Shown: piece after piece, positions 1,070 through 1,255 of the stretch
Layout of the letters: each line of letters begins with the position of its first letter
Numbering within the stretch: position 1 is the stretch's first letter
From: a virus
Lineage: Duplodnaviria; Heunggongvirae; Uroviricota; Caudoviricetes
Direction: 5' to 3' (one strand)
IMG/VR virus record: IMGVR_UViG_2541047173_000019
Length of the DNA: 4,005 bases
The notes under the pieces: model-generated
What the model was told of the DNA's origin: nothing
The model's database searches: none
The model's input: only the letters and a program-made list of their open reading frames with translations
Position numbers and translations under genes: made by a program

Positions 1070-1255
1070 ATGCCAAACAAACCATGCCCTGCCTGTAACG
1101 CTCTTTCTGGCTTTTTAGAGAAGGGCGGTTATTACATTTTTAACTGTCCAGAACATGTTGAATTTCATATATCAAAACTTGACAGTATCATTACAAAGCC
1201 AAATCAGTATCAGTCTGATTTACTGAATAAAGAGTTAAACGCCGCCCGAGATTAA
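1070..1255 (+). CDS. small zinc-ribbon-like protein, 61 aa, on the strand opposite the surrounding operon
   Basis: ATG at 1070 with GGAGGA (1060-1065) at ideal spacing. Product MPNKPCPACNALSGFLEKGGYYIFNCPEHVEFH... has CPAC and CPEH motifs spaced like a four-ligand zinc ribbon. ORF-track entry 998..1255 is the same frame with an unlikely upstream start. Confidence 0.55.
   Translation: MPNKPCPACNALSGFLEKGGYYIFNCPEHVEFHISKLDSIITKPNQYQSDLLNKELNAARD

Follow-up and report, generated by a model that had tools for sequence, protein, structure and literature searches.

A truncated gene for a probable zinc-binding protein in the early-left region of a Qin/DicB-type prophage belongs to an exchangeable and apparently undescribed two-gene cassette

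Accessory genes expressed in the lysogen occur in and near the pL region of lambdoid phages, as exemplified by sieB of lambda and P22 and by rexAB, and several phages encode small zinc-finger or zinc-ribbon proteins, such as Com of Mu, Ogr of P2, and Ea8.5 of lambda. Convergent transcripts with a 3′ overlap are known in lambda from the OOP antisense RNA and cII. Among two-gene systems, the closest to the locus described here are the polymorphic toxin/immunity systems, namely CdiA-CT/CdiI, Rhs, and the phage-borne MuF toxins (PMC5576092), and the toxin–antitoxin (TA) modules of prophages, for instance paaR-paaA-parE (PMC8630535). We analyzed a 4,005-nucleotide stretch of tailed-phage DNA (Caudoviricetes; IMG/VR record IMGVR_UViG_2541047173_000019), hereafter the window, which corresponds to the early/immunity region of an Escherichia coli lambdoid prophage of the Qin/DicB type. 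Its subject is a small open reading frame (ORF) on the plus strand, at 1070–1255, set among annotated or recognizable neighbors that all lie, from 130 to 2167, on the minus strand. This ORF is ECs1061 of prophage Sp4 in strain Sakai and EDL933_RS06115 in EDL933, where it is carried by the paaA-parE-containing prophage at the position matching Sakai Sp4; it is present in RefSeq as a hypothetical protein (WP_001133046.1) and falls in PHROG family phrog_10133, of unassigned function. Across 382 complete E. coli genomes, O157:H7 among them, the region 950–1300 shows 100% identity. Comparison of related loci indicates that this small gene and the gene convergent with it, the partner, make up a two-gene cassette, which lambda-like (Qin/DicB-type) prophages exchange en bloc, and that both genes are damaged in the window.

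The ORF at 1070–1255 is a genuine, translated protein-coding gene of the prophage. Its length alone is not above chance, since 42 ORFs of 30 residues or more occur in the window, several of them plainly spurious, including one of 181 residues; it is recognized as a gene because of frame-specific selection, a syntenic distant homologue, invariant ligand residues, and a ribosome-profiling signal. UMNF18 carries a version of the whole module 1012–1844 with 76% nucleotide identity, and comparison of the small ORF with its UMNF18 orthologue gave a ratio of nonsynonymous to synonymous substitution rates (dN/dS) of 0.18 in its own frame versus 0.49–1.25 in the other five frames. Between intact alleles of the small gene, dN/dS is 0.16 over 80 codons (p = 3e-9), and the ratio of nonsynonymous to synonymous differences per site (pN/pS) between two closer intact alleles is 0.08. 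Taken together, the dN/dS values of the small ORF in its own frame lie at 0.14–0.18. An exhaustive phmmer search of 1.8 billion representatives returned one true distant match, P0005, with 48% identity. Four metagenome-assembled contigs of another lambdoid prophage carry it, at the same place and in the same orientation against the leftward genes, with an AAGGA Shine-Dalgarno sequence of its own. The two best matches of that search (P0003 and P0004) are long repeat proteins whose scores sum weak helical repeats without cysteines, and were discarded as spurious. Other searches were less productive: a word-index search of 5.8 billion proteins yielded two clusters only, both near-identical and from E. 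coli, tblastn against 50,697 deposited phages gave chance matches only (E ≥ 0.2), a contig scan with one genome per species found no relative, and the small gene was met in IMG/VR in identical copies only.

Expression of the gene is documented in uninduced O157:H7 Sakai, where strand-specific RNA sequencing and ribosome profiling (RNAseq and RIBOseq) placed ECs1061 in the control set of translated short annotated genes (PMC5597208). In lysogeny broth, it showed 12.2 reads per kilobase per million mapped reads (RPKM) for RNA and 68.2 for ribosomes, with a ribosome coverage value of 5.58 and an ORF coverage of 0.51; in brain heart infusion, the corresponding figures were 33.8, 30.8, 1.04, and 0.69 (PMC5597208, S2 Table). 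The locus is single-copy per genome, so the RIBOseq mapping is unambiguous. A first-pass annotation made from the sequence alone had taken this strand to be transcribed and translated, and the RNA and ribosome footprints from the uninduced Sakai prophage bear it out.

That annotation also described correctly the 61-residue ORF antiparallel to the leftward genes and its GGAGGA Shine-Dalgarno sequence, which is kept in UMNF18 and in the related loci L020 and L022. The published spacing of this motif in ECs1061 is likewise 4 nt, with a ΔG of −6.3 (PMC5597208, S4 Table). An alternative start at the in-frame ATG at 1058 (MEDKM...) was considered less likely: it has no Shine-Dalgarno sequence of its own, and the homologue in the foreign enterobacterial prophage L006 begins directly at MPQK, behind its own AAGGA. 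One variant, in cluster P0002, has ATA at the second position, and 1070 is the probable start. Further upstream, a candidate weak sigma-70 promoter (Table 1) agrees with the consensus at 8 of 12 positions, which is under the scan threshold; it is invariant across all cassette types and coincides with a promoter that BPROM predicts 122 bp ahead of the ECs1061 start, with a linear discriminant function of 4.52 (PMC5597208, S4 Table).

The allele in the window is C-terminally truncated: it retains 61 of 80 codons, the last 19 having been lost through a TCA-to-TAA change. Intact relatives, all of 80 residues, are found in L020/L021 (assembly GCA_022741485.1), L022, Logan cluster P0002, UMNF18, and P0005. 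The lost tail is conserved across lineages with the pattern R-x-SG...RP..VE[LF] and is under purifying selection (dN/dS 0.23, p = 0.03). This allele group is carried by 386 complete E. coli genomes, of which 383 contain the exact 60-mer around the TAA, and the one checked variant with a single mismatch also encodes 61 residues.

The small protein is a probable zinc-binding protein with a Cys3-His zinc-ribbon-like core followed by a predicted helix. The CPAC and CPEH sequences had been read at first pass as zinc-ribbon motifs, and their conservation supports this reading. C6-P-A-C9 and C26-P-E-H29 are invariant in the O157-type and UMNF18-type proteins and in P0005, three lineages down to 48% identity, so that all four ligands are conserved in the homologues; His33 is not conserved across the three lineages. 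The AlphaFold2 model (mean predicted local distance difference test score, pLDDT, 75) would agree with it: four strands are predicted, the two ligand pairs falling in β-hairpin turns, and then a helix at residues 46–60, which is how a zinc ribbon is laid out. The best PDB profile match is a zinc-finger domain (E = 0.003). The protein is a member of no curated zinc-ribbon family, and fold searches gave no significant match: the 61-residue form has no Pfam match at E ≤ 1, and the 80-residue form has sub-threshold matches only, to Zn_ribbon_RRN7 (12 bits, cut-off 27) and HVO_2753_ZBP (11.5 bits, cut-off 33).

The convergence of the small ORF on an ORF at 1293–1445, pointed out at first pass, is confirmed, and that 50-residue ORF proves to be the 3′ fragment of a frameshifted 179-residue gene. 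The 135-residue gene convergent with P0005 aligns to a single continuous minus-strand frame, 1613–1293 (tblastn, E = 3e-8 within the window), which is made up of the 50-residue ORF and of the 3′ half of the 129-residue ORF, ECs1063, read in another frame. A search with the C-terminal part reconstructed in this way retrieved intact proteins of 179–181 residues (P0007, P0008, P0009, and P0011) with up to 98% identity, and the UMNF18 partner is an intact 186-residue gene (WP_000394524.1). Intact alleles read GCAAAAAAAATTGC, with a run of eight A (A8), where the window reads ACAAAAAAATTGC, with seven (A7). As judged from these alignments, ECs1063 and the 50-residue ORF are one 179-residue gene split by an A8-to-A7 deletion. 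PDB sequence searches with the partner and with another C-terminal domain were negative.

The A7 site reads A_AAA_AAA in the zero frame, and a −1 ribosomal or transcriptional slip there would restore the full-length partner exactly; judging from this motif, low-level −1 slippage may take place. Programmed frameshifting or phase variation at this site was considered and is disfavored: because intact relatives have A8 and the exact 65-mer with the A7 run is found in 384 of the 386 genomes, a fixed deletion is the simpler reading. The one variant checked around the A-run also encodes the 129-residue ORF. Both lesions are present in essentially all of the 386 genomes, and since the TAA and A7 alleles are near-fixed, the O157-type lineage has damage in both members of the pair.

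The organization of the cassette emerged from a survey of 80 IMG/VR loci with the MEFKDL N-terminal domain of the partner (L023–L102), together with loci L004, L005, and L018–L022. At intact loci, the 179/180-residue gene and the 80-residue gene converge with an overlap of 20 nt, which reaches 44 nt in UMNF18. Behind one and the same N-domain, the big protein carries at least six unrelated types of C-terminal domain, with total lengths of 112, 121, 129, 135, 179–186, and 212 residues, and each type is accompanied by a convergent small ORF proper to it, with a length of 61–80, 64, 66, 69, 77, or 99 residues. The 3′ ends of the small ORFs abut or overlap the big gene by 0–44 nt in all cassette types, and the pairing of C-domain and small ORF is one-to-one in about 80 loci. 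The C-domain types fall in PHROG families 1363, 2151, 9419, 6937, and 33007; the cassette families of unassigned function are phrog_1363, 2151, 9419, 6937, 33007, 10133, 34441, and 10348. Purifying selection also acts on a second small-ORF family, of 69 residues (pN/pS 0.15–0.27, p ≤ 0.001).

The borders of the exchanged block can be placed with some precision. In four of the six types, the small ORFs begin from the same conserved ...CAATGGAGGATAAAATG and diverge right after it (alignment of nine loci with four small-ORF families); the mEp460 and Evi types lack the common Shine-Dalgarno sequence and start, and begin differently. Because the types share this start and diverge after it, the variable block extends from about 1074, at the small-gene start codon, to about 1612, at the junction of the N- and C-domains. 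Homology to cassette-less phages stops at 1011, a search with 1012–1844 showed that positions 1012–1072/1073 match genomes otherwise devoid of the module, and in Tritos and PhiR42_1 the whole of 1012–1844 is replaced by ydfC. These comparisons identify the site, between ydfB/ydfC and DicF, as a recombination hot spot. Prophage L006 carries two cassettes in tandem (5733–7206) that share a different N-domain (MGERKIS..., phrog_1744): one combines a C-domain of the window type with a zinc-ribbon homologue of 91 residues, the other a different C-domain with an unrelated convergent ORF of 65 residues. In the open-access text, no paper describing this cassette was found, and neither WP_001133046 nor the ECs tags occur in any main text; the organization appears to be undescribed and to be a variation on the theme of polymorphic effectors and their cognate proteins. 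Homopolymer runs lie at critical positions in both cassette genes. In L076 and L073, an A6-versus-A7 run directly after codon 4 puts the small ORF out of frame, a difference that could reflect phase variation or homopolymer sequencing error.

What the pair might do is suggested by when and where the small gene is expressed. In prophages of this type, PaaR2 represses the PL promoter (PMC8630535). Since the small protein is expressed while pL is repressed and its gene is antisense to pL, neutralization of a cognate domain is the most economical role. In the lysogen, a promoter of its own would drive low-level synthesis of the small protein, which would bind and neutralize the cognate C-domain, as an immunity protein or an antitoxin does; after induction, its expression would be overridden by convergent transcription from pL. 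Both the neutralization of the C-domain and the silencing by convergent pL transcription are what we infer. In the window, both halves bear inactivating lesions, although the truncated small protein is still translated: given the nonsense codon and the A8-to-A7 frameshift, the cassette is probably a decaying remnant, and the host-modulating function envisaged at first pass is doubtful for this copy, whose small gene is truncated and whose partner is frameshifted. Our tentative preference, held with slightly less than even confidence, is thus for the small gene as one half of a swappable cassette, a lysogen-expressed cognate neutralizer of the C-domain of its partner that is decaying here. A wider generalization is more doubtful. 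It would see in the early-left operon of enterobacterial lambdoid phages a set of undescribed polymorphic cassettes, each with a constant N-domain, interchangeable effector C-domains, and a convergent lysogen-expressed inhibitor that pL shuts off on induction, serving phage–phage or phage–host conflict, for example allele-specific exclusion or addiction; the window ORF would then be the zinc-ribbon inhibitor of one decayed allele.

Several observations weigh against this proposal. Adjacent sequences co-vary by linkage alone, so the one-to-one pairing is no proof of interaction, and the joint decay of both genes, which fits a functional couple, is a single event in a defective prophage. In four IMG/VR loci of the 212-residue type, of which L076 is the representative, an intact big gene stands beside a frameshifted small gene; unless homopolymer sequencing errors account for this, it speaks against an antitoxin that is strictly essential. 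The truncated 61-residue form, which keeps the whole zinc core and the helix, might still work. Family assignments offer no help, as Pfam, NCBIfam, and PADLOC gave nothing above threshold for the small protein, its 80-residue form, the partner, and the proteins of four other cassette types, PDB sequence searches matched no cassette protein above threshold, and the AlphaFold2 model of the partner (pLDDT 48) is unusable. On the side of expression, the RIBOseq read counts of ECs1061 are low, and a consensus promoter scan upstream of 1070 found none.

Alternative roles for the small gene as a moron, a cofactor, or an RNA element are all rated below the immunity-like model. As an autonomous moron, its zinc-ribbon protein would act on the host or on incoming phages independently of the partner, their adjacency being linkage in a mosaic block. 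Much of this moron-like reading, first put forward at first pass, stands: the gene is absent from close relatives (Tritos and PhiR42_1), sits between conserved genes in the opposite orientation with its own Shine-Dalgarno sequence, has a GC content (0.38) slightly lower than its flanks, and is expressed from the uninduced prophage; the loci of another cassette type with an intact big gene and a broken small gene also agree with it. On the evidence of linkage, however, its independence is not supported. The small gene always travels with its cognate C-domain, within borders that enclose both (one inside the big gene, where its N- and C-domains meet, the other, for four of the six types, exactly at the small-gene start codon), the zinc-ribbon homologue follows the C-domain even where the N-domain and the flanks differ, and the O157-type lineage has lesions in both genes. 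We consider an autonomous moron unlikely, if still credible. A positive cofactor, that is a cognate chaperone, adaptor, or activator of the C-domain such as the assembly chaperones of tail-fiber C-domains, would account equally well for the co-variation, the common cassette borders, and the joint decay. It would nevertheless be poorly designed, for the 3′-overlapping convergence means that the small gene is read antisense to the strong pL transcript at the very time when the partner is expressed, and its own expression is seen in uninduced cells, when pL is repressed; we hold this role to be distinctly unlikely.

A function at the level of RNA or transcription is improbable for other reasons. 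The plus-strand transcript would here be an antisense RNA or a roadblock directed against the 3′ end of the partner mRNA and against leaky pL read-through to DicF/dicB, the peptide being secondary. The overlap of the 3′ ends in all cassette types, the position of the gene between pL and the toxic DicF/dicB genes, and the analogy with OOP RNA acting on cII would suit such a function, but the strong purifying selection on the amino acid sequence, which extends outside the overlap, the invariant zinc ligands, and the ribosome footprints speak for the protein. These same ligands and footprints, with the frame-specific dN/dS and the syntenic homologue at 48% identity, refute a chance ORF or annotation artefact, to which the mere two clusters in the 5.8-billion-protein search, the lack of a Pfam family, and the lack of a consensus promoter might have pointed, and to which we give hardly any credence.

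The features of the locus are collected in Table 1.

Table 1 Coordinates of the cassette and of neighboring features in the window
Feature	Position	Strand	Remarks
Candidate weak sigma-70 promoter	948–976	+	−35 TTTTCA 948–953, 17-nt spacer, −10 TAAACT 971–976
Conserved left flank of cassette	1012–1073	+	Ends in ATGGAGGATAAAATG (Shine-Dalgarno + start codon)
Shine-Dalgarno sequence GGAGGA	1060–1065	+	4 bases ahead of the ATG
Small ORF	1070–1255	+	ATG 1070–1072, TAA 1253–1255, 61 codons: MPNKPCPACNALSGFLEKGGYYIFNCPEHVEFHISKLDSIITKPNQYQSDLLNKELNAARD
Premature stop TAA	1253–1255	+	Codon 62; TCA (Ser62) in intact alleles
In-frame remnant of lost tail	1256–1315	+	Reads GRSGPLKILQRPTIVELD, then stop; translated in intact alleles, overlapping the partner 3′ end by ~20 nt
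Weak terminator-like hairpin	1303–1318	+	At end of intact-length ORF; consensus scan only
Partner gene, early-left operon, frameshifted	1293–1831	−	N-domain (MEFKDL) ~1613–1831; variable C-domain ~1293–1612
Partner piece, 129-residue ORF (ECs1063)	1442–1831	−	
Partner piece, 50-residue ORF	1293–1445	−	Orphan, unannotated
Frameshift site, A7 run	1562–1568	−	T7 on plus strand; A8 in intact alleles
DUF1482/ydfD-like gene	130–321	−	
dicB	318–506	−	
DicF small RNA	681–732	−	Full-length Rfam match, 65.7 bits
ydfB	1843–2013	−	
DUF1391/ydfA	1973–2167	−	
Operator/promoter region	near 2310–2355		Leftward
RelE/ParE toxin	2406–2693	−	
RelB-like antitoxin	2693–2884	−	
cI-like repressor	2912–3313	−	

Read leftwards, the minus strand carries the cI-like repressor, the RelB-like antitoxin, the RelE/ParE toxin, the operator/promoter region, ydfA, ydfB, and then the 129-residue gene; cro-like and ydaT-like genes run rightward from 3422. 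The repressor, antitoxin, and toxin genes (2406–3313, minus strand) have the paaR-paaA-parE arrangement of the O157:H7 prophages CP-933P and CP-933M (PMC8630535). A strong terminator-like hairpin lies at 2372–2387, just ahead of the leftward promoter/operator region. The AT-rich repeats at 2313–2354 and 3342–3395, of the type AAAAAACTGTT..., are related and inverted in orientation, and probably serve the repressor as its left and right operators. On the other side of the cassette, positions 740–1011 form a noncoding block of about 270 bp upstream of DicF that contains a hairpin at 983–1006 and is kept in thousands of E. coli genomes with or without the cassette; a plus-strand ORF placed there by an older annotation (EDL933_RS06110) looks spurious. 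Between DicF and dicB, at 487–692 on the minus strand, a sub-threshold Rfam match to STnc100 was observed (32 bits against a gathering score of 47), and a similar match (35.5 bits) occurs in the unrelated prophage L006.

Published Cappable-seq data of EDL933 can be projected onto the window. A minus-strand transcription start site at 1253115 corresponds to window position 734, 2 bases upstream of DicF (PMC10469882, supplement 7). A plus-strand antisense start site at 1254075, detected in 8 of 8 conditions, corresponds to about 1694, within the part of the 129-residue gene that encodes the N-domain, and further plus-strand sites at 1254217 and 1254274 correspond to 1836 and 1893. These three sites are directed rightwards, away from the zinc-ribbon gene.

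Taken alone, the small ORF is of modest interest, being a damaged copy that is already annotated, and the weight lies in the pattern at the level of the family. A large proportion of E. coli genomes harbor Qin/DicB-type prophages, whose early-left operon has this hot spot, and comparable architectures elsewhere mark conflict systems, either toxin/immunity or defense/counter-defense pairs. Should the small proteins be allele-specific inhibitors acting in the lysogen, they would constitute a class of prophage-encoded interaction modules that is new and easily put to the test, and would provide a function for several PHROG families now labeled unknown. That ECs1061 and ECs1063 of O157:H7 are mutated alleles is relevant to anyone studying either gene.

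The cassette resembles the polymorphic toxin/immunity systems in its constant N-terminal region followed by unrelated alternative C-domains, and in the adjacent small gene proper to each C-domain. It differs from them in that Pfam scans found no delivery or secretion domain and its C-domains have no match to known toxin domains, that its small gene is convergent and 3′-overlapping rather than downstream in the same direction, and that it sits in the pL early operon and not in a secretion or head-morphogenesis module. With the prophage TA modules, one of which, paaR-paaA-parE, lies in the same window, it shares the two-gene format in a prophage, a small protein proposed to neutralize a larger partner, and, in this copy, a decay that affects the two genes together. 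A type II TA operon it is not: the genes are on opposite strands, under presumably different promoters, with the big gene within the repressed lytic pL operon, there is no match to a TA family, and loci with an intact big gene and a broken small one exist.

Other comparisons concern the small gene alone. Like sieB, rexAB, and the classical morons, it is a small accessory gene of the early-left region with candidate expression signals of its own, transcribed with pL off and absent from related phages; unlike sieB and rexAB, to which it has no sequence or family relation, it is linked to a cognate partner domain, with which it travels. Its transcript recalls OOP RNA, a short convergent transcript over the 3′ end of a regulated phage gene, with the difference that it encodes a conserved and translated protein. 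In the predicted structure of that protein, about 60–80 residues long, two Cys/His knuckles on β-hairpins are followed by a helix, a layout that would place it close to Com of Mu, Ogr of P2, and Ea8.5 of lambda.

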